DNA of 15,563 bases, taken from the IMG/VR virus record IMGVR_UViG_3300042562_001768, one strand, 5' to 3'. The notes below the pieces were generated by a model. The model ran no database searches. It worked only from the letters and a program-made list of their open reading frames with translations, and was not told the origin of the DNA. This DNA is from a virus. A program made the translations under genes and the position numbers. Below, piece by piece: positions 1-15,563 of this stretch. How positions within the stretch are numbered: the stretch's first letter is position 1; the number at the start of each line of letters is the position of its first letter.

Positions 1-127
1 GGGGGGGTGGGAGGTCTTTGGGGAGGTCATGCAAGCCATCGAACGGCACGATCCGCGAGCCCAGGGAGACCTGCCCGGACAGCGCCGCGTCGTGCGTCGG
101 CGCCTGGATGAACTCGGCATCAAGGAC
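1..127. repeat. Terminal direct repeat, copy 1; exact duplicate of 15437..15563 (circular-closure overlap or terminal redundancy)
   Basis: Read directly: the first 127 nt (ggggggg tgggaggtctttggggaggtcatgcaagcc ... ctcggcatcaaggac) recur exactly as the last 127 nt of the window. Confidence 0.9.
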
Positions 128-280
128 GGCGACGCGCGCGGCGCGTGGCAGCTCTTGGTCCGCAGTTGGGCCTCGACCGGGCGGCGCCCGTACGACCGCT
201 TGGTCGACCTGACTGATCGCCTGCAAGGCGCCAGAGACCCGCGCGCGGTCATCCTTGCGCGGATCAGGGAGGTCGCATGA
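2..280 (+). CDS. C-terminal part of the junction-spanning winged-helix initiator-like gene (same gene as 15027..15563 after wrap-around); the ORF track shows it as 29..280
   Basis: Position 2 corresponds to 15438 and is in the same frame as the ORF opening at 15027. The frame stays open to TGA at 278-280. The Met at 29 is internal to this longer frame. Confidence 0.6.
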   Translation, partial: GGWEVFGEVMQAIERHDPRAQGDLPGQRRVVRRRLDELGIKDGDARGAWQLLVRSWASTGRRPYDRLVDLTDRLQGARDPRAVILARIREVA

Positions 281-687
281 TGGACGAGCAGTGCAAATCG
301 TGCCAAGATTGGCGAGACTTGTTCGTGAGATCGAATCGTGAAAATCAGGAGCTCAGGCGCCTGAACATTGCATTCAACAGACCGGAGCCATCACCAGACT
401 TGCAGCAGGAATACAGAGAAATGAAGGTGCAGAACCGAGCGATGATGGACGTTCACAACCTTCTGGTGAAGGAACATGGCGAAGCCGTTCGCCAGGTACC
501 AGCCCTCAGCGCAACGATTGCACGCCTTAAGCGCGACATTGTTCTGATCCATCAGATCTGCACGCCGCGCCAACGCTACAAACTGAGGCGCGTCTTATGG
601 CTTGACCAGCAAGAAATCGAGCATTACCGCAAGTCGCTTCACCCTGAATACATGTACGGACACGGGAAGAAGAGAAAGACAGCATGA
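277..687 (+). CDS. Hypothetical protein (136 aa), basic C-terminus
   Basis: ATG at 277 overlaps the upstream stop (ATGA). ORF-track protein MMDEQCKSCQDW...GHGKKRKTA. The region is visibly lower in G+C than the structural genes (by eye, not computed). No motif recognised. Confidence 0.5.
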   Translation: MMDEQCKSCQDWRDLFVRSNRENQELRRLNIAFNRPEPSPDLQQEYREMKVQNRAMMDVHNLLVKEHGEAVRQVPALSATIARLKRDIVLIHQICTPRQRYKLRRVLWLDQQEIEHYRKSLHPEYMYGHGKKRKTA

Positions 688-779
688 TCGGCTTCATCTT
701 CGTGTCGTTCCTGCTCCTGTTGGCGGCAGCGCCATTCATCGCCATAGCCACACTCTTACCCTGGGAATCAGATGACTAA
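684..779 (+). CDS. Small hydrophobic peptide (31 aa), putative single-pass membrane protein
   Basis: ATG at 684 overlaps the stop of the previous gene (ATGA). My translation is MIGFIFVSFLLLLAAAPFIAIATLLPWESDD, ending at TAA 777-779, and overlaps the next gene start at 772. Below the ORF-track length cutoff. Confidence 0.3.
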   Translation: MIGFIFVSFLLLLAAAPFIAIATLLPWESDD

Positions 780-1023
780 GAAAGAACTTGAGTCCATCCG
801 CCACGAGATCGCCGTCCTCAAGCGCGAGGTCGAACTCCTGCGCGACACCAACCTCGCGCGCGTGACGTACGGACGGCCCGTCATGGTCGTCCGTCGCGAC
901 AGCATGGGCGTGCACTTCGAAGACGCGCCACAACGGCGCGACACCATCGAGGATCTTGCCGCCGCGCACCGATGCGTAACCGATCGAGACATCGAGCGCG
1001 CGATGTATGCGGGGGAAGGATGA
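772..1023 (+). CDS. Hypothetical protein (83 aa)
   Basis: ORF-track frame MTKKELESIRHEIAVLKREVELLRD...; the next gene starts at 1020 overlapping its stop. No motif recognised. Confidence 0.5.
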   Translation: MTKKELESIRHEIAVLKREVELLRDTNLARVTYGRPVMVVRRDSMGVHFEDAPQRRDTIEDLAAAHRCVTDRDIERAMYAGEG

Positions 1024-1511
1024 GCCTTCCCACCAACAGCCGTATGAAGGGCAAACGGGGCGAACTGGACGCTGCCGCGCACCTCACTGAGTTGACCAGG
1101 TGGAAGTGGGAGCGCACCGCGCAACGCTGGGGCAAGGCCACGGCGGACGTTTGGTGCCCGCGCGCGCCCGCTCTGTTCCAGTTGCACGTGGAGGTGAAAC
1201 TGTACGGGCGCGGACTGGCCAAGCTTCACACCGCGGCAGCGGCGTATCCGCTGGTGGTCACGCGCGATGGCCTGCACATCTGCGAGCTCAGCCGCCTGCG
1301 CGTCCAACTGCTCAGGCTTGGCCCGCCGAACGTCACCTTGAGCGTTCACAACACGACCGCCGCCTTCATGCGCCAGGCAGTAGCCGACGCGTCAGGCGTC
1401 ACGCCGCTCGTCCTCATGCGACAGGACCGACACCCGTGGCTGGCAGTCTGGCGAAGCGAGGACGAGGACCGAGTCGCCTACCAACTCGACCAGGTGTGGA
1501 ATGAGACGTGA
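1020..1511 (+). CDS. PD-(D/E)XK-type nuclease, Holliday-junction-resolvase-like (Hjc/RecU-like pattern)
   Basis: ATG at 1020 overlaps the upstream TGA at 1021-1023 (ATGA). The N-terminal region MKGKRGELDAAAHLTE...ADVWCP...FQLHVEVK fits the G-x-x-x-E ... D ... (hydrophobic)3-E-V-K pattern of Hjc-like PD-(D/E)XK nucleases. Judged by eye only. Confidence 0.5.
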   Translation: MSLPTNSRMKGKRGELDAAAHLTELTRWKWERTAQRWGKATADVWCPRAPALFQLHVEVKLYGRGLAKLHTAAAAYPLVVTRDGLHICELSRLRVQLLRLGPPNVTLSVHNTTAAFMRQAVADASGVTPLVLMRQDRHPWLAVWRSEDEDRVAYQLDQVWNET

Positions 1512-1776
1512 GCCCCAATGCATCCACGCGCGCAAGGCGCCCGTCGTGCGGTCAGCCCACACTGGCAAGGGCAGTGGTCGACCGATGTTTCGGTTGAGTC
1601 GGACCACGCGCGCCAACCATCCGATGTGCCAGGAGAACTGCGGTCGACCATCGACCGAAGTGCATCACATCGTTCCTTGGTCCGAGTCAGTCGTGCTGCG
1701 GCTCGACCCAAATAATTTGGTCGCAGTTTGCCGTGACTGCCATGAGCGTTTGGAGGCGCTGCGGCTGACCAAGTAG
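1501..1776 (+). CDS. HNH endonuclease
   Basis: Protein contains C-x2-C ... EVHHIVP ... NNLVAVCRDCHERLE, the HNH zinc-finger and catalytic His pattern. ATG at 1501 overlaps the upstream gene by 11 nt. The true start could be a later in-frame Met (1585 or 1624). Sits immediately upstream of large terminase. Confidence 0.8.
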   Translation: MRREPQCIHARKAPVVRSAHTGKGSGRPMFRLSRTTRANHPMCQENCGRPSTEVHHIVPWSESVVLRLDPNNLVAVCRDCHERLEALRLTK

Positions 1777-1800
1777 CGATCCGTTTTTCAATTATGAGCC

Positions 1801-1822
1801 CCCCCCTATAGCCCCCCTATAG
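1801..1822. repeat. Tandem direct repeat, 2 x cccccctatag, in the HNH-terminase intergenic region
   Basis: Read directly: cccccctatag at 1801-1811 and again at 1812-1822, preceded by two more C and followed by cgagggg. Confidence 0.8.
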
Positions 1823-1868
1823 CGAGGGGTTTGAAGTACCTACGAGGTCAACCCACGGATAAACGCCG

Positions 1869-1911
1869 CCAATGCATAAGGAAAACACCCCCAATGCATA
1901 AGAAAACGCCC
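1869..1911. repeat. Tandem imperfect direct repeat (22 + 21 nt) overlapping the terminase ribosome-binding site and start codon
   Basis: ccaatgcataaggaaaacaccc (1869-1890) is followed by ccaatgcataagaaaacgccc (1891-1911). The ATG of the second copy (1894) is the terminase start; AAGGA at 1878-1882 lies 11 nt upstream. Confidence 0.7.
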
Positions 1912-3609
1912 ATCAGACGGTCACGCAAAGCGCCCGCCGGAGCGCTCCAGATTGCGGACGCCTACGCTCACGAAGCGCTGAAGGGCAAGCGCTACAACAC
2001 CCGCATCCGCGCCTTCAGTTCCCAGTGGCTGGCCGCGCGGGCGGCACCAAAGTCGGCTGGTTACGTGTGGGATGAGGAGCGCCTGACCAGCCTGGTGGAG
2101 TACGCGCGGGAGCGGTTCAAGATCACGCTCCTGCCGTGGCAGTACCTGGCCTTCGCCACGCTCGTTTCGTGGCGCGATCAGGCCGACCTTCCGGTGGTTC
2201 GGGTGTTCGCGATACAGGTCGCGCGGGGTGCGGGGAAGACGGAGATGGTGGCGATCCTGGCGTCTTGGCTGGTCGAGTGGACCGCGCGCGCGGGTCGTTC
2301 GCCGATCGAGATCGTGGTGCTCGCGACGCAGATGGAGCGCGCCAAAGACGTGTGGCTTCGGCAGAAGGTCAGCCTCGCGGACGACCCGTCCTGGCGCCTG
2401 GTCGGTGGTCTGTCGTCGCTCGTCATTGCCGCGGCCCACCACGCTGGCGGGGTGGTCAAGTGCAAGCCATCGACCCCTAAGAACGCGGACGGAATCCTGC
2501 CCACGCTCGTCGTCTTGGACGAGGCGGCGCGCATCGAAGACGAGACCTACGCGCGCGCGCTCAGTTCGATCAGCAAGGTGCCAGGCTGCCAGGCGCTGAT
2601 CGTTACGACGCCGGACAAGGATCAGCGCCGCCGCGGATACGGCACGACCATCGGACTGCTGGAGCGCGCCTACGACGAGAACACTTCGCCGCCGCCAGGG
2701 ATCGCCGGGATGATCTTCGGCATCGACACCACCGATCGACCGGACGATCCGGAGGCGTGGTACAAGGCGCACCCCAGCCTCGGCATCACGAAGCAGCTCA
2801 GCGACTACACGCTCGGCAAGGCGCTGCTCTTGGATCCCGGCGCACCGAACGATCGCGACGAGTTCTACACCCAGTTCCTCGCGACCTTCACGGATGACCT
2901 GGCCGGTGCCATGCCGCTAAGTCTGTTCGACGCGTGCGTCGAGGACTGGGATCTCTCCGACTTCCGCGGCTTCCCGGCAGTGGTCGGAGTCGACTTCAGC
3001 CAGGGCGGTTGGAGCGGTCAGCAGACGGACCTGACCTCGATCAATGTGTCGGTGTGGGACGGCGTCCGCATCCGCTCCAGGTCGTACCACTACTGGGCCG
3101 GGACCAACATCGAAGCGGACGAAGTCAAGTGCCGACAGCCGCTGCGCGAGTGGCGGGACGCGGGTCTCTTGGAGGTCTGCGGCAACACCATTGACTACTC
3201 GCTACTGGAGGCGCGGACCATCGCCATCGCGTCGATCGTTGACCTGCGGCACTGGGTCGCGGACCCAGCAGGGAAGGCGCCCGCCTGGTGCGAGGCGATG
3301 GAGAAGCGACACGGATGGCGCTGGTCGCGCGCTCCTCAGTCGCACATTTACATGGGCTCGGCGTGGGCAATTTGGAGCGACGCCGTGCGCGGTCGGCGCA
3401 TCCAGTTCGCACCCGATCCGGTGCTCCGCGCGAACCTGTCGCACACGCGCGCGGTGCCAACCGACCGAGGTCTGAGCGTGCCAAGCAAGGGGCGCAGCAC
3501 CAGCAACATCGACGCCGTCACCGCGTGCTGCATGTGCATCAAGGTGCTCAACGATCGCGAGCTCATGACCGAGAGTCTGTACGGCGACCCGGGCAAGATC
3601 TCCTTCTGA
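1894..3609 (+). CDS. terL: Terminase large subunit
   Basis: Long ORF with a P-loop-like segment VFAIQVARGAGKTEMVAILASWLV and a Walker-B-like LVVLDEAARIEDE, followed by a C-terminal nuclease-sized region. ATG at 1894 has an AAGGA Shine-Dalgarno; the ORF-track start at 1831 is a TTG extension. Followed by portal and capsid genes. Confidence 0.9.
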   Translation: MHKKTPIRRSRKAPAGALQIADAYAHEALKGKRYNTRIRAFSSQWLAARAAPKSAGYVWDEERLTSLVEYARERFKITLLPWQYLAFATLVSWRDQADLPVVRVFAIQVARGAGKTEMVAILASWLVEWTARAGRSPIEIVVLATQMERAKDVWLRQKVSLADDPSWRLVGGLSSLVIAAAHHAGGVVKCKPSTPKNADGILPTLVVLDEAARIEDETYARALSSISKVPGCQALIVTTPDKDQRRRGYGTTIGLLERAYDENTSPPPGIAGMIFGIDTTDRPDDPEAWYKAHPSLGITKQLSDYTLGKALLLDPGAPNDRDEFYTQFLATFTDDLAGAMPLSLFDACVEDWDLSDFRGFPAVVGVDFSQGGWSGQQTDLTSINVSVWDGVRIRSRSYHYWAGTNIEADEVKCRQPLREWRDAGLLEVCGNTIDYSLLEARTIAIASIVDLRHWVADPAGKAPAWCEAMEKRHGWRWSRAPQSHIYMGSAWAIWSDAVRGRRIQFAPDPVLRANLSHTRAVPTDRGLSVPSKGRSTSNIDAVTACCMCIKVLNDRELMTESLYGDPGKISF

Positions 3610-3674
3610 GAATCTCCGCCGCACTGCAACGGGAACCCATTGACATCGCTGCCGCGATTGTTGTTACTACTCGC

Positions 3675-4796
3675 ATGAACCGTCTGTTCAAGCTCTTCGG
3701 CTTCAAGTCTGCACCGATGAATATCGGTTGGGACTCTCCGTCGAACTACGTCCGAGCAGACGTCGCGGCGCTGCCGTCCGTGCAGCGATGCATGAACCTG
3801 ATCGCGAACGATGTCGCGCGCTGCCCACTGGTGGTGCGCGACGCCGAGCAGATGATGGTCGAAGACTCGACGATCACCGCGCTCTTTACGAATGCGGCGC
3901 AGGCCGAGCTAAGCGGAACAGACTTCCGCCGATGGATGGCTTCGGAAGCGCTGCTGTCTGGCAACGCCTTCGCGCAGATCGTGACCGACTCGATGGGCCA
4001 GCCCGTCGCGTTGCGTCCGCTGGCGAGCTCAGCCGTCAGCCTGAACGAAGACAGTAACGGCGTGCTGCATTGGACCTACTCCGGCACCGAGATCGACTAC
4101 GCCTCGATGCTGCACTTCAAGGGTGCGCCGAGTCCAGGGAATCCGTACTGGGGCACAAGTGTCCTGAGCGCTGCGGCGACAAGCCTCGACGCAGTCGCGC
4201 AAACCGAAGCAGCCTGGAACGCATACACCCGGAGCGGCGGATACGGCAAGCTTGTCTTCAGTCATCCCGGCGCTCTCCAGCCTGCGACCCGCGACGCCAT
4301 GCGGACCGCCTTCATGTCGGGACACATGACTGCCGCCGCAGCGGGCACACCGATCTTCGTCGGCGAAGGGATGACCGTGACCGCGCTCTCGCCGTCGTGG
4401 GGCAAGGACATGATCGAGCTCCGCGCCGCGGGCGCGCGCGTGGTCGCGAACATGTTCGGCGTACCAGCCGCGTACCTCGACATGAGCGAGGCGCGCACGC
4501 AACCAGAGATCGCACAGTCGTACGTCTCGTCGTGCTTAGAAATCTGGGCCACGACCTGGGAAGCGGAGATCAGTAACAAGCTCTTGCGACCTGGTCTTCG
4601 TGTTCGTTGGGACTGGTCGCCTGTCTTGGAAGGAGACTTCCGAACCGCTGGCAAGGCGTACGGAAAGTTCGTCGAGGTCGGCGTGCTCAGTCCGAACGAC
4701 GTCCGCGTTCGCCTTGGCTACTCGCCGCTGCCTGGTCTCTGGGATCCGAGGCCAGTGATGAGTGGCATCACCATCGAATCGGACGGTCTGCAATGA
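3675..4796 (+). CDS. Portal protein (HK97-like family)
   Basis: 373-aa ORF directly between terminase and prohead protease; MNRLFKLFGFKSAPMNIGWDSPSNYV... First in-frame ATG after the terminase stop; the ORF-track start at 3288 lies inside terminase. No clear Shine-Dalgarno, so the start is uncertain (alternative ATG at 3717). Confidence 0.8.
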   Translation: MNRLFKLFGFKSAPMNIGWDSPSNYVRADVAALPSVQRCMNLIANDVARCPLVVRDAEQMMVEDSTITALFTNAAQAELSGTDFRRWMASEALLSGNAFAQIVTDSMGQPVALRPLASSAVSLNEDSNGVLHWTYSGTEIDYASMLHFKGAPSPGNPYWGTSVLSAAATSLDAVAQTEAAWNAYTRSGGYGKLVFSHPGALQPATRDAMRTAFMSGHMTAAAAGTPIFVGEGMTVTALSPSWGKDMIELRAAGARVVANMFGVPAAYLDMSEARTQPEIAQSYVSSCLEIWATTWEAEISNKLLRPGLRVRWDWSPVLEGDFRTAGKAYGKFVEVGVLSPNDVRVRLGYSPLPGLWDPRPVMSGITIESDGLQ

Positions 4797-6403
4797 TGCG
4801 AGAACTCCGCGCACAACTGGCACCGACTACCGACGGGACGGTCCGCGGATACGCGGCGCTGTTCGACTCTTGGTCGCTGCCGATCACCGAGCGCGGACGC
4901 ACGTTCCGCGAACGCATCAAGCCGGGCGCACTACAGCCGGACGGGAACGTCTCACTGTGGTGGATGCACGACCACACCGACCCACTCGCGAACACGCGCA
5001 GCGGATCGCTCACGATTACAGAGGACGCGAAGGGGATCGCATTCGTAGCCGACTTGGGTACGAGCGCGCGCGCGGACGAGATCCGCGACCTCATTCGCCG
5101 CGGGGTGGTCGACCAGATGTCGATCGGCTTCGTCGCACTCTCAGATATCTGGGACGGCAATACGTCCCGCACGATCACTAAGGCCACGCTCCATGAGGTG
5201 AGTTTGGTCGAATCGGCTGCGTACCCCGGTACGTCAGCAACCGTCCGCAACCACCAAAGGAAACCCGCTATGTCCGTCAAAGAAGATCGTGCTCGCATCG
5301 CCGAGCTCAACGCTGAATACAACACCGCTACCGATGAGCGTCAGTTCGCCATCATGGACGAAGTCGCAGAGTGTGAGGAGCGCATCGCTGGCGCCCAGGC
5401 TGCATTCACCAACCGCGCCGCCACACCGTTGGCAGTCGCACCGTCGGCACCGCTTGCCGTCGTTCGTCGCATCACGCCTCCAGTCCGTGACGAGCAGCGC
5501 GAGTGGTTCCGCACTGGCTTCAAGCAGAACCGATCCATCGGTCTGAGCGTGACGGGTGGCAACGCTACCGCCGGGCAAACTTTGCCGACCCTGAGCGGTG
5601 AGTTCATCAAGGCGCTCGACCAAGAGTCCGTGATGCGTAGCCTCGCAACCGTCGAGACCCGTGGACTCGATACCGATATCCAAGTGATCGGCACGCGCCA
5701 GACCGCTGTTCTGCTGGCAGAAAAGGCGGCGTACACATCGACCGACTTCACCGCGACCAAGCTCTCTTTCAAGAGCTACAAGTCCGGCGCGCTGACCGAC
5801 GTCACGGAAGAGGCCTTGCAGGACACCGTGTGGGATGTTGCGAGTCAGGTAGTCAGTGAACACGGTCGCGCTCACTCGCGACTCTGGGAGAACTACTACG
5901 TAAACGGTACCGGCACTTCCCAGCCGCAAGGCGCGTTTGCTGCGACCTGGACAACGACGTACACCACGGCGGCTGTTGGCTTGCCAACGGTGGCGGACTT
6001 GGTCACGGCTGCGTACAAGTTGCCAACCCCGTACCAGGCGAACGCGTCCTGGCTCATGCACTCAACTGTTTGGGCTGCGGTCGTCGGCAGTGCGGCCAGC
6101 GGCAAGTACCTCCTGAACGGTGAGAACGGGAACATCCTCAAGGACGGGGCCGTCGCTCTGTTCCTCGGCAAGCCTGTCTACCTCAGCGAGTGGGCACCAT
6201 CGGCAGCAACCGCTGCTACGGTGTCGTGCCTGTACGGTGACTTCAAGGCGGGCTACCGAATCATCGACCGCTCGATGCTGAGCTTCACCGTTGATGATGT
6301 GTCCCAGATGTCTAACGGACTCATCCGCTACACCAGTCGTATGCGCTCCGACGCCAAGGCCGTCGACGCGACCGCGATTGTCCCGGTCGTCATCAAGACC
6401 TGA
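4793..6403 (+). CDS. Prohead (capsid maturation) protease fused in frame to HK97-type major capsid protein; internal ribosome-binding site and ATG at 5270 may also give stand-alone capsid protein
   Basis: ATG at 4793 overlaps the portal stop (ATGA). The N-terminal ~159 aa (VRGYAALFDS...WWMHDHTD...VDQMSIGFVALSD...LHEVSLVESAAYPGT) match the HK97 prohead protease pattern. From MSVKEDRARIAELNAEY onward it is a coiled-coil delta region followed by a capsid-protein-like body ending ...DATAIVPVVIKT. No stop codon separates the two parts. AAGGA at 5257-5261 precedes the in-frame ATG at 5270. Confidence 0.85.
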   Translation: MMRELRAQLAPTTDGTVRGYAALFDSWSLPITERGRTFRERIKPGALQPDGNVSLWWMHDHTDPLANTRSGSLTITEDAKGIAFVADLGTSARADEIRDLIRRGVVDQMSIGFVALSDIWDGNTSRTITKATLHEVSLVESAAYPGTSATVRNHQRKPAMSVKEDRARIAELNAEYNTATDERQFAIMDEVAECEERIAGAQAAFTNRAATPLAVAPSAPLAVVRRITPPVRDEQREWFRTGFKQNRSIGLSVTGGNATAGQTLPTLSGEFIKALDQESVMRSLATVETRGLDTDIQVIGTRQTAVLLAEKAAYTSTDFTATKLSFKSYKSGALTDVTEEALQDTVWDVASQVVSEHGRAHSRLWENYYVNGTGTSQPQGAFAATWTTTYTTAAVGLPTVADLVTAAYKLPTPYQANASWLMHSTVWAAVVGSAASGKYLLNGENGNILKDGAVALFLGKPVYLSEWAPSAATAATVSCLYGDFKAGYRIIDRSMLSFTVDDVSQMSNGLIRYTSRMRSDAKAVDATAIVPVVIKT

Positions 6404-8247: not shown

Positions 8248-8642
8248 TGGCAACTCGCGCAATGGCTGGCTACGGCGGCACACTCACCTTTAAGATCGGG
8301 GCCGGGACCGCCAACGGTATCCCAGTCCGGAACATCACCATGTCGCGCCAGGCGGCAGAGTTCGATATGACGTCGATCTCGGATACCAAGATCTACAGCG
8401 GTCCCGGTCGCGTGAAGCGGAGCGGCTCCTGTGATGCGTACTTCGGAACGCTGTCGGCAAACTTCACGACCTCGATCGAAGCCATCGACCTAGCAGCGCC
8501 AGCCGAACTCGTCATCACGGACGCGGCTGGCGGGTCCACGACCATGAAGGTCATCATCACCGCCGCGGACTTGAAGTACGACGGCAGCGATGCGGTCATC
8601 TACTCCATCAGCTTTTCCGAAACGATCAGCATCACCGTATGA
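8247..8642 (+). CDS. Major tail (tube) protein candidate
   Basis: 131 aa, Gly/Thr/Ser-rich and beta-like: MATRAMAGYGGTLTFKIGAGTANGIPVRNITMSRQAAEFDMTSISDTKIYSGPGRVK... Pattern and position are typical of small siphovirus tail tube proteins. TGATG overlap with the upstream gene. Confidence 0.55.
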   Translation: MATRAMAGYGGTLTFKIGAGTANGIPVRNITMSRQAAEFDMTSISDTKIYSGPGRVKRSGSCDAYFGTLSANFTTSIEAIDLAAPAELVITDAAGGSTTMKVIITAADLKYDGSDAVIYSISFSETISITV

Positions 8643-8890
8643 CCTACCGACCAGTCATCCTCGAATACTCGTCGCTCACCCTTGAGGTCCGGAGACCAAC
8701 CCTCCGCGACACCGTGGAGGCAGACACATCGGACAAGCTTTGGTGGGTTCGCTGCGTGCGCCATGTCGGCGGCGCAGACCTCACCAGGGACGAGGCGCTC
8801 GACCTCGATGCCGCGGACGGTAACACGCTCGCGCAGGAGGTGCTTCGCCCACACCCTACACCGCCGCTGAGAAGCGGCTCTGGAGACTGA
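8639..8890 (+). CDS. Tail assembly chaperone candidate
   Basis: 83-aa ORF between the major tail and tape-measure candidates. ATG overlaps the upstream stop (ATGA). Call by synteny. Confidence 0.4.
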   Translation: MTYRPVILEYSSLTLEVRRPTLRDTVEADTSDKLWWVRCVRHVGGADLTRDEALDLDAADGNTLAQEVLRPHPTPPLRSGSGD

Positions 8891-9063
8891 TGCCACACCT
8901 AGACGCCGACGCCGCACTCGCAAGCGAGCACACCACGCTGGAGCGGATCGAGTACCTACTCGCCACGCTTGCCTGCGCGATGACTGGCCAGGCGCCACAG
9001 CAGTTGCTGCCGTGGCGTCGGCGTGGCATCGAGGACTTCATGGGGCGCATCAATGGCCAATGA
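8890..9063 (+). CDS. Small ORF (57 aa) in the -1 frame relative to the upstream chaperone candidate; possible second chaperone ORF
   Basis: My translation is MPHLDADAALASEHTTLERIEYLLATLACAMTGQAPQQLLPWRRRGIEDFMGRINGQ, with ATG at 8890 (TGATG overlap) and stop TGA at 9061-9063. Not in the ORF track (below length cutoff). No canonical slippery heptamer seen upstream. Confidence 0.3.
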   Translation: MPHLDADAALASEHTTLERIEYLLATLACAMTGQAPQQLLPWRRRGIEDFMGRINGQ

Positions 9064-9661
9064 GTTCAAGTCAGTCCTCACCCTGACCGCGGACAGTTCC
9101 GGCGTCACCGCCGGAGTTAACCAGGCGATGCAGTCCCTCAACAAGTTGCAAGGCGGGATGTCCGCGCTGACATCGCTCGCGGGCGTCGGCTTTGCCATCG
9201 GCATTGGCAAGCAACTCTTCGGCGCAGCCACCGACGAGATGGCACGGATCAAAGACCTCGCGCACTCCTTCAGTCCGGAAGGGATGCGCGGCGCCAACGC
9301 CATGAACATGGCGACCCAGCAGGCGGACATGGCTATCGGCAAGGCGTTCGGTCCGATCGTGGAAGCGATCGACCAGGCATCCGTCGCAGCGATCAAGGAA
9401 CTGACCACGTTCATCATCGAGCACAAGGACGAGATCGGGATGGCGATGATCTATCTGACCGAGGTCACGCACGTGGCAGCAATGGCTATGGCAGAGTTCC
9501 TCGTCGGTCTGGGCAAGACCGTCGAGTGGCTGCATAACTTCATGGACAATCCACTACAGGCGACCGCCCAACTCGCTGGCGATGTTGCGATGCAGGCCAG
9601 TGGCGCCAACCTCGTCATCGGTATCTATGACCTCCTCAAACAGAAATTGGGTGGCACATGA
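9053..9661 (+). CDS. Tape measure protein candidate, unusually short (~202 aa)
   Basis: Ala/Gly/Met-rich, apparently helical protein with a hydrophobic segment ALTSLAGVGFAIGIGKQLFGAA, at the tape-measure position after the chaperone-like ORFs. ATG at 9053; an alternative GTG lies at 9023. Confidence 0.45.
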   Translation: MANEFKSVLTLTADSSGVTAGVNQAMQSLNKLQGGMSALTSLAGVGFAIGIGKQLFGAATDEMARIKDLAHSFSPEGMRGANAMNMATQQADMAIGKAFGPIVEAIDQASVAAIKELTTFIIEHKDEIGMAMIYLTEVTHVAAMAMAEFLVGLGKTVEWLHNFMDNPLQATAQLAGDVAMQASGANLVIGIYDLLKQKLGGT

Positions 9662-15027: not shown

Positions 15028-15563
15028 TGCGCGTCGCCAAGCAACACATCCACATGGGAGAGATCTTCCGCTGCTCCGGACTTGCTCCGATGCAGCGTTA
15101 CCTACTCATGGCAATAGCCGATTACGGGCTCCCCGCCTGGCCGTCCCAGGCGCGCCTCGCAAACAAAACTGGACTCTCGCGATCCAGCATCAACACGATG
15201 GTGTCAGAGTTACGTCGCCTCGGCGTCCTTACGACGGAAGGTCGGGGCAAGTCTTTGACCTATCGAATTGACCTGTCTGGGAAGGGTGAGGTGTCGTCCG
15301 CAGCGACACCTCACCTGTCGTCCACAGCGACACCACCTGTCGTCCACAGCGACAGCAGGTGTCGCCCACAGCGACAGGGATCAGAACTCTCCAAGGAACT
15401 CTCCAATGAACCCTCCCAGTCCGCGGTGGAAACCGCGGGGGGGTGGGAGGTCTTTGGGGAGGTCATGCAAGCCATCGAACGGCACGATCCGCGAGCCCAG
15501 GGAGACCTGCCCGGACAGCGCCGCGTCGTGCGTCGGCGCCTGGATGAACTCGGCATCAAGGAC
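15027..15563 (+). CDS. Winged-helix DNA-binding protein, putative replication initiator with embedded iterons; truncated by the window edge and completed by 2..280 (229 aa in total)
   Basis: ATG at 15027 (TGATG overlap with erf stop). N-terminus MQRYLLMAIADYGLPAWPSQARLANKTGLSRSSINTMVSELRRLGVLTTEG is HTH-like. The frame is open to the window end and continues through the duplicated 127 nt. The Ser/Thr/Pro-rich linker is encoded by the iteron array. Confidence 0.65.
   Translation, partial: MRVAKQHIHMGEIFRCSGLAPMQRYLLMAIADYGLPAWPSQARLANKTGLSRSSINTMVSELRRLGVLTTEGRGKSLTYRIDLSGKGEVSSAATPHLSSTATPPVVHSDSRCRPQRQGSELSKELSNEPSQSAVETAGGWEVFGEVMQAIERHDPRAQGDLPGQRRVVRRRLDELGIKD
15285..15376. promoter_or_regulatory. 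Array of four 17-bp palindromic iteron-like repeats (tgtcgYccRcagcgaca), candidate origin of replication or operator
   Basis: Units at 15292-15308, 15316-15332, 15338-15354 and 15360-15376, spaced 24/22/22 bp. Each is an inverted repeat tgtcg-N7-cgaca. The first is extended to 12-bp arms (ggtgaggtgtcg / cgacacctcacc, 15285-15315). Followed by an AT-richer 11-bp direct repeat gaactctccaa x2 at 15384-15406. Confidence 0.55.

Follow-up and report, generated by a model that had tools for sequence, protein, structure and literature searches.

A probable cos site in the HNH-terminase spacer of a 15,436-bp HK97-like tailed phage

Does the short spacer between the HNH endonuclease gene and the large terminase (TerL) gene of an uncultivated phage hold the site at which its DNA is cut for packaging, and if so, what kind of site is it? 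The window (the whole stretch of 15,563 nt that was analysed, IMG/VR virus record IMGVR_UViG_3300042562_001768) encodes on its + strand an HNH endonuclease of 91 aa (1501-1776; Pfam HNH E 8e-12, phrog_144) and a Terminase_1-type large terminase of 571 aa (1894-3609; Pfam TerL_ATPase and TerL_nuclease, phrog_9 E 2e-58). Both TerL domains, the ATPase (PF03354) and the nuclease (PF20441), score above the gathering cut-off. The 117 nt between the HNH stop and the TerL ATG (1777-1893) contain no ORF. According to the original prediction this 117-bp spacer carries a C-run, two copies of cccccctatag and a 21-22-bp tandem repeat, all of which are indeed present, and was to be regarded as a candidate packaging site of either the cos or the pac type. 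Here we argue that the interval very probably contains the cos site of a complete HK97-like tailed phage of 15,436 bp.

The two ends of the window share an exact overlap of 127 bp (1-127 against 15437-15563), and the window is therefore a complete circular assembly of a tailed-phage genome of 15,436 bp. Its G+C content is 61.6% and the + strand carries every gene, in the order O-like replication initiator, ERF, 277-687, 772-1023, PD-(D/E)XK nuclease, HNH, TerL, portal, protease-capsid, followed by connector and tail genes. At this size it is among the smallest genomes for an HK97-type siphovirus-like gene set (relatives measure 15.2-17.7 kb). The HK97-type portal (PF04860), the S78 prohead protease (PF04586) and the capsid (PF05065) are all recognised by Pfam, and the Peptidase_S78 prohead protease and HK97-type major capsid protein are fused into one ORF of 536 aa (4793-6403). 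An ORF at 8639-8890 gives a weak match to a tail assembly chaperone and is followed by ORFs of 57 aa (8890-9063) and 202 aa (9053-9661). The latter, which has no family match, occupies the tape-measure position by gene order; if it is a tape measure, the tail would be unusually short. Profile searches of the genome recognised no lysis or integrase genes, Rfam returned no match and no tRNAs were found.

The O-like replication initiator (229 aa, + strand, with a winged HTH) runs from 15027 across the window ends to 280, and the ORF listed as 29-280 is merely its C-terminal part. Within the initiator ORF we find 3.8 copies of a 22-bp iteron (15292-15376) together with a 12-bp array of 2.8 copies (15384-15416); the iterons are probably a replication origin inside the initiator's own gene, as in lambda O. 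The gene of the PD-(D/E)XK nuclease (1020-1511, + strand; Pfam PDDEXK_15 E 2e-8, phrog_244 RusA-like resolvase E 1e-11) overlaps the HNH start with its 3' end and is kept in all 25 related loci that were clustered (25/25); its likely role in the packaging operon is that of a resolvase or debranching nuclease. Across these loci the family-wide genes upstream of cos are rep, ERF, the PD-(D/E)XK nuclease and HNH only. The ORF at 277-687 (136 aa, helical) is hypervariable, with 61% identity in the relative L003, whose neighbouring genes are 96-97% identical. Situated between the modules for replication and packaging, it resembles an accessory (moron-like) gene.

Relatives were collected through TerL-, HNH- and portal-based scans of IMG/VR, which yielded many contigs of 15.2-17.7 kb, and a metagenome scan contributed 3 loci only. 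A DNA search of window positions 1-4000 against 50,697 phage records gave no match, and the matches of the TerL protein among sequenced phages all have an identity of at most 24%. A search of representative genomes of bacteria and archaea turned up no relative of TerL, which leaves a prophage origin unsupported.

The position of the cut was inferred from the ends of assembled public contigs (IMG/VR and exact-protein look-ups). Among the contigs that encode an identical HNH protein, 4 out of 5 end exactly at 1839 (…GAAGTAC), 63 nt past the HNH stop; these are L164, L165, L166 and L167, from samples 3300033995, ERZ27272063, 3300010885 and ERZ27272078. A contig with an identical TerL (L162) starts exactly at 1852 (CCCACGG…), and four more identical-TerL contigs start at most 40 nt away: two at 1858 (6 nt inside), one at 1835 (17 nt outside) and one at 1813 (39 nt outside). 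Among the relatives, starts at the base homologous to 1852 are seen in 15 contigs, which represent about ten lineages, and 12 others start scattered inside TerL. The 15 include L099, a member of a sister sub-lineage that has its upstream cos half in common with L003. Four contigs (L068, L055, L052 and L056) end at the AC homologous to 1839, and in the relative L069 the contig end lies 7 nt inside the overhang. Four full-length linear contigs have one end at each of the two positions (3300034062_003039 of 17,589 bp, 3300031857_002148 of 17,305 bp, 3300011113_000280 of 17,008 bp and 3300032334_001356 of 16,284 bp); where their lineage also offers a contig that spans the site, comparison shows that exactly the intervening 12 nt are missing from them.

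The contig ends thus outline the parts of the site. A conserved flank of GAAGTAC up to AC (1833-1839) is where contigs end, either at 1839 itself, with which the base-paired part of the right end stops, or at the homologous base. It is followed by the presumed 12-nt cohesive end CTACGAGGTCAA (1840-1851, + strand), missing from linear contigs and present in spanning ones, and by the left duplex end CCCACGGAT... (1852-1860), where L162, L099 and 14 other relatives start. It is the fixed ends 12 nt apart that identify the site as cos, since headful packaging or terminal repeats would not yield such a pattern: 8 contigs end on the same homologous base and in 4 contigs both ends are fixed. Both bases fall inside 1777-1911, the interval that had been put forward, so that of the two site types considered at the outset it is cos, and not pac, that is borne out.

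At one position the window deviates from its closest relatives: it has T at 1841 (CTACGAGGTCAA), where every other contig of the species and sub-lineage has G (CGACGAGGTCAA), fitting the family consensus CGNCG. The T may reflect genuine variation, or the assembly may be wrong in this region of low coverage. A separate observation concerns the contigs L084, L085, L088 and L090 of more distant HNH relatives (16.6-39.8 kb; HNH identity 35-38%), which end about 100 nt past HNH in …GAT or …GAC, after G/C runs. The contig-end approach may be of use to map cos in other HNH-terminase phage groups.

The fate of the 12 nt also bears on the polarity of the overhang. End repair trims 3' overhangs and fills in 5' overhangs. 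The signature of a 5' overhang, in which the 12 nt are repeated at both contig ends, is absent; the linear contigs are without them. In two contigs the 12 nt are retained next to a tail: at the end of L072 they are followed by the low-complexity tail TTCTCTTCCCCCCTCT (last 16 nt), and L127 starts with AAGGAAG (first 7 nt) followed by the 12 nt. Both tails are C/T on the 3' end of the respective strand, which we take to be the composition of adaptase tails, and they are probably such tails that survived trimming. Adaptase tailing is used for JGI low-input viromes (PMC6511391). In public viromes, tails of this kind can help to flag true 3' ends. Given that the 12 nt are lost rather than duplicated and that the tails are found on 3' ends, we infer that the 12-nt overhang is a 3' overhang, formed by the top strand at the right end and by the bottom strand at the left end; our confidence in this polarity is somewhat below that in the cos assignment.

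On the right-end side of the cut lies a pair of C-runs (1799-1822), consisting of C8 at 1799-1806 and C6 at 1812-1817, with an exact tandem 2 x CCCCCCTATAG at 1801-1822. In the window the second C-run ends 22 nt before the bottom-strand nick. These two are the only runs of at least six C on the + strand of the genome, and G/C runs of six or more number 5 in total against about 18 expected from shuffles. The pair is present in 27/27 distinct junction variants of related contigs, which exceeds what chance would give, and all of them show the same arrangement: a C-run, 5-11 nt, a C-run, 19-23 nt to AC, 12 nt (usually with a CGNCG start) and CC. The coding context of the runs differs between lineages. 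The first C-run encodes the HNH C-terminal …IPPA in lineages B-D, both runs are proline codons of the TerL N-terminal extension in lineages A and E, lineage B reads the runs in another frame, and in the window's group they come after an in-frame TGA and are untranslated. As frame and coding context change while the runs and their spacing stay, it is the DNA that is conserved here. The C-run pair is probably a recognition or positioning element of cos, located on the side that is packaged last.

In the relatives the HNH and TerL ORFs overlap. For most lineages outside the window's group, the stretch from the left end to the conserved TerL motif ALDIADAYA offers none of the start codons ATG, GTG and TTG (lineages A and F have a single in-frame GTG each in this segment), and each such lineage has an ATG, preceded by an SD sequence, at or overlapping the HNH stop and in the TerL frame. 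TerL ORFs that begin upstream of cos extend over 1936-3759 in L007, 763-2586 in L009 and 5881-7695 in L010, and similar ones are seen in other lineages; the predicted N-terminal peptide of a straddling TerL is, for example, MARKPGGRSGGRK…. In lineage E, 8 of the 9 variable codons among extension codons 5-15 (beyond the HNH stop) are purely synonymous, which shows that the extension is translated and that the TerL ORF crosses cos. In most relatives, then, the TerL ORF is predicted to begin upstream of cos and to straddle the cut, and the virion DNA of such relatives would carry the first 20-30 terL codons at its right end and the rest at its left end. A search for genes spanning cos in the literature library used here yielded nothing relevant.

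It might be argued that the spacer of the window is coding as well, with TerL beginning upstream (at TTG 1831 or earlier) and the C-runs serving as proline codons as in the relatives. The TerL frame is open from 1798 onwards and aligns with the extension of the relatives (APPYSPP..KY.R against APPGISPP..EY.R), of which the lineage-E version is translated according to its substitution pattern. Nonetheless, in the window, L001 and L005 the segment is immediately preceded by an in-frame TGA (1795-1797 in the window), the only start codon available is TTG 1831, 1-3 nt after GAGGGG, and the in-frame substitutions within the window's group are 2 synonymous against 5 non-synonymous. The upstream frame of the sister L047 is out of phase with TerL, and the C-runs occur in different frames in different lineages. 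Overall we consider a coding spacer in the window unlikely; moreover, it could hold alongside cos and would not take its place. In public assemblies the TerL gene is called from ATG 1894. With the TGA at 1795 and the new ATG at 1894, the window's group has escaped straddling. The description of the spacer as intergenic needs a correction in this respect: in most relatives the homologous DNA is the translated 5' end of TerL.

The top-strand cut also shows up in the mosaic structure of the family. L047 is near-identical to L003 until GGTCAA/ (around 3340-3360 of L047) and then diverges, precisely at the top-strand cut; compared with the window, its identity is 73.6% for TerL, 94.5% for HNH and 90% for the portal. 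Similar mosaic junctions at the top-strand cut are found in other lineages (table of 27 variants); in the family, recombination junctions coincide with this cut.

Since CTATAG is a palindrome, the 11-bp direct repeat at the C-runs is also an inverted repeat, giving the dyad CCCC..CTATAG / CTATAG..GGGG (1799-1829). In the window this dyad folds better than shuffles (z -3.3), a compensatory change is seen in L003 and L047 (CTATGG / CCATAG), and further downstream the AAGGA and ATG of TerL lie within the tandem repeat. Such features could belong to ordinary regulatory sequence, i.e. a terminator hairpin after HNH and a promoter or ribosome-binding site for the late operon, with the repeats being incidental. 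However, a consensus scan of 1777-1893 detected no terminator- or promoter-like site on the + strand (the only one nearby being a hairpin on the - strand, 1919-1907), the hairpin is without a T-tract (the dyad is followed by TTTGAAG only) and it is not consistently stable across lineages. The C-runs, moreover, persist where they are inside HNH or TerL coding sequence, and the precise contig ends 12 nt apart are left unexplained by regulation, which makes this a very unlikely account of the spacer. We also considered a conserved hairpin as the core of cos; with z values from -3.6 to +0.8 over 12 lineages (DNA folding) this idea was dropped for the family, and the structure is kept only as a local dyad of the window's group.

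Could the contig ends have arisen during assembly, because the C-runs and the hairpin sequence poorly, without reflecting physical ends of the DNA? Illumina coverage drops at homopolymer G/C runs and at G+C-rich dyads, so that contigs can break nearby, and some contigs of the window's species start at 1813, 1835 or 1858 instead of 1852. Breaks due to coverage loss scatter, however, whereas here 16 left and 8 right ends hit two exact homologous bases, which lie 22 and 34 nt downstream of the C-runs and recur over many samples, assemblers and divergent lineages. Single contigs have both ends there with exactly 12 nt missing, and two (L072 and L127) carry the 12 nt plus non-templated tails, so that an artefact is even harder to credit than a regulatory role. 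The least credible reading, to which we give next to no weight, takes the region for a pac site used in headful packaging, or for the edge of a direct terminal repeat: the window and several relatives do assemble as circles, like permuted genomes, but both ends are base-exact in many contigs whereas under headful packaging the right end is not fixed, a terminal repeat should be seen twice, once at each contig end, where instead 12 nt are missing, and the TerL type with its HNH partner is that of HK97-type cos phages.

Within the cos reading, the tandem repeat takes a different place than the C-runs. It has a period of 22/21 bp and 2.4 copies (1861-1911, + strand; TRF score 81, 86% matches), scores 21 matches for the 22-bp repeat where 60 shuffles never exceeded 14, and occupies positions +10 to +60 inside the left end. 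As described originally, it spans the ribosome-binding site and start codon of TerL, with AAGGA at 1878-1882 and ATG at 1894. Relative to other lineages it amounts to an insertion of 7 aa, and it is missing in the sister sub-lineage L047/L099, where a separate ATG lies 19 nt (six codons) past the cut. A family-wide array comparable to cosB was considered and rejected, as 11 other left ends contain no significant direct repeat. The 22-bp repeat is a private duplication; the present TerL start arose with it, and it does not belong to cos in general. Of the repeats noted at the outset, the C-run pair is thus found in cos throughout the family, and the tandem repeat is private to the sub-lineage. 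The ATG of the second repeat copy (1894) is the TerL start. The ATG of the first copy (1872) is out of the TerL frame and opens a mini-ORF of 9 codons (MHKENTPNA; 1872-1901, + strand, read from the sequence), whose TAA stop at 1899-1901 overlaps the TerL start; this mini-ORF is probably a by-product of the duplication.

In the absence of an ORF between HNH and TerL (the lack of one of small-terminase size had been noted from the outset), the question arises where a small terminase (TerS) might be encoded. For none of the ORFs of the complete genome did we find a TerS family match (Pfam, PHROGs, E<=0.1), and the sole 'terminase small subunit' match in PHROGs (phrog_4581) is the HNH domain itself. 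TerL itself has the usual length, with no additional domain fused to it. The original prediction named 277-687 and 772-1023 as possible unrecognised small terminases and proposed profile searches of the small upstream ORFs; these gave no TerS match, and both candidates turn out to be poor. ORF 277-687 is absent from the complete 15,406-bp genome L005/L045 (TerL 98.7% identical, same cos), and the 61% identity in L003 is likewise at odds with such a role. ORF 772-1023 is confined to the window's lineage, whereas cos, HNH and TerL are family-wide, and it shows no co-variation with either cos half; other lineages have an unrelated small ORF at this position (…AERDEARREVC…GWDCF). Searches of both ORFs in Pfam, PHROGs and PDB sequences returned nothing meaningful, jackhmmer over the related loci recovered homologues in the window's lineage only, and single-sequence AlphaFold models reached pLDDT values of 47 and 61, too poor for a fold search. 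Taken together, either the family is without a TerS or it has one that profile searches do not reach.

As candidates for reading cos we see HNH, TerL and the basic N-terminal arm of TerL. This short extra arm (MHKKTPIRRSRKAPAG) precedes the canonical N-terminus, is rich in lysine, arginine and proline, contains a conserved R-x-S-R-K/Q-x-P motif and is encoded right at cos. A tentative and rather doubtful extension of the cos reading is that recognition proceeds free of TerS, with HNH and/or TerL reading the C-runs, a straddling terL that is split by the cut, and the left end plus the arm acting as a specificity module. If true, terminase could be produced only from circularised or concatemeric genomes, because terL is cut in two in the virion, and a split of this kind would couple terminase expression to genome circularisation. 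Likewise, left-end DNA and TerL arm would be inherited together because recombination junctions fall at the cut.

The steps of packaging may be pictured as follows. Concatemeric or circular replicative DNA would be the substrate for two nicks 12 bp apart, made by the Terminase_1-type TerL with the help of the adjacent small HNH endonuclease. The bottom strand would be nicked at 1839/1840 (…GAAGTAC/C) and the top strand at 1851/1852 (…GGTCAA/CCC), giving a virion chromosome that runs from 1852 round to 1851, with TerL as the first gene at the left end and HNH as the last gene at the right end. Both ends would carry complementary 12-nt 3' overhangs (1840-1851). The C-run pair, which keeps a fixed distance from the cut on its right-end side, would serve as the conserved recognition or positioning element, and a separate small terminase would not be encoded.

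For the annotation of this uncultivated phage group, a true genome start at 1852 and end at 1851 are now fixed. The complete genomes of the family (15-17.6 kb) offer a minimal natural system for how HNH and TerL find and cut cos, and the C-run pair provides a concrete, mutable candidate for the recognition element.

Phage HK97 is among the closest known systems. Its DNA ends in short 3' overhangs, and cos cleavage by its TerL is stimulated by the HNH protein gp74 (PMC9410871, PMC11331095). The overhang is given as 10 nt in PMC11331095 and in Fig. 1 of PMC9410871, and as 12 nt in the Discussion of the latter. HK97-type cos packaging is understood as a three-protein system in which TerS recognises the site, and this recognition site has been mapped 15-29 bp downstream of the cut (PMC11331095). 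As in HK97 (gp74 HNH - gp1 TerS - gp2 TerL), HNH is the last gene before cos and the terminase the first after it, TerL is of the Terminase_1 type, the portal, S78 protease and capsid are HK97-type, and defined ends come with a short 3' overhang (12 nt as deduced for the window). The window thus shares with the HK97-type module the HNH-TerL adjacency, the Terminase_1 TerL, the portal/protease/capsid set and the fixed ends; the one feature not found is a TerS gene, neither between cos and TerL nor elsewhere in recognisable form. Two further differences are that the conserved element of the window lies 22-50 bp upstream of the cut whereas the TerS site of HK97 lies downstream, and that the HK97 genome measures about 40 kb against 15.4 kb here.

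The best TerL match among isolates is that of Geobacillus phage vB_GthS_PK3.5 (OP341626), even though the identity is only about 21%. Here too HNH lies close to the right end (93 nt) and terminase and portal are at the left end, an arrangement also seen in similar HNH-TerS-TerL siphoviruses, but PK3.5 has an annotated TerS of 164 aa (16-510) directly upstream of TerL, which the window is without. The cos site of lambda (cosQ-cosN-cosB) likewise has staggered nicks 12 bp apart, and the accessory element of the window, which lies on the last-packaged side at a short, fixed interval from the nick, calls cosQ to mind. Unlike the window, lambda has 5' overhangs, no HNH partner, and R-sites for gpNu1 (TerS) plus IHF in cosB, none of which are seen here.

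Phages P22 (gene 3) and SPP1 (gene 1) have their pac sites inside terS, with terminally redundant genomes and no gene that is physically split. Most relatives of the window resemble them in having the packaging site inside a terminase ORF, with the difference that the cos cut would part the first 20-30 codons of terL from the rest. Summarizing, the module is an HK97-type, HNH-assisted cos system without a recognisable TerS, to which an upstream C-run element is added, and in most relatives terL straddles cos.
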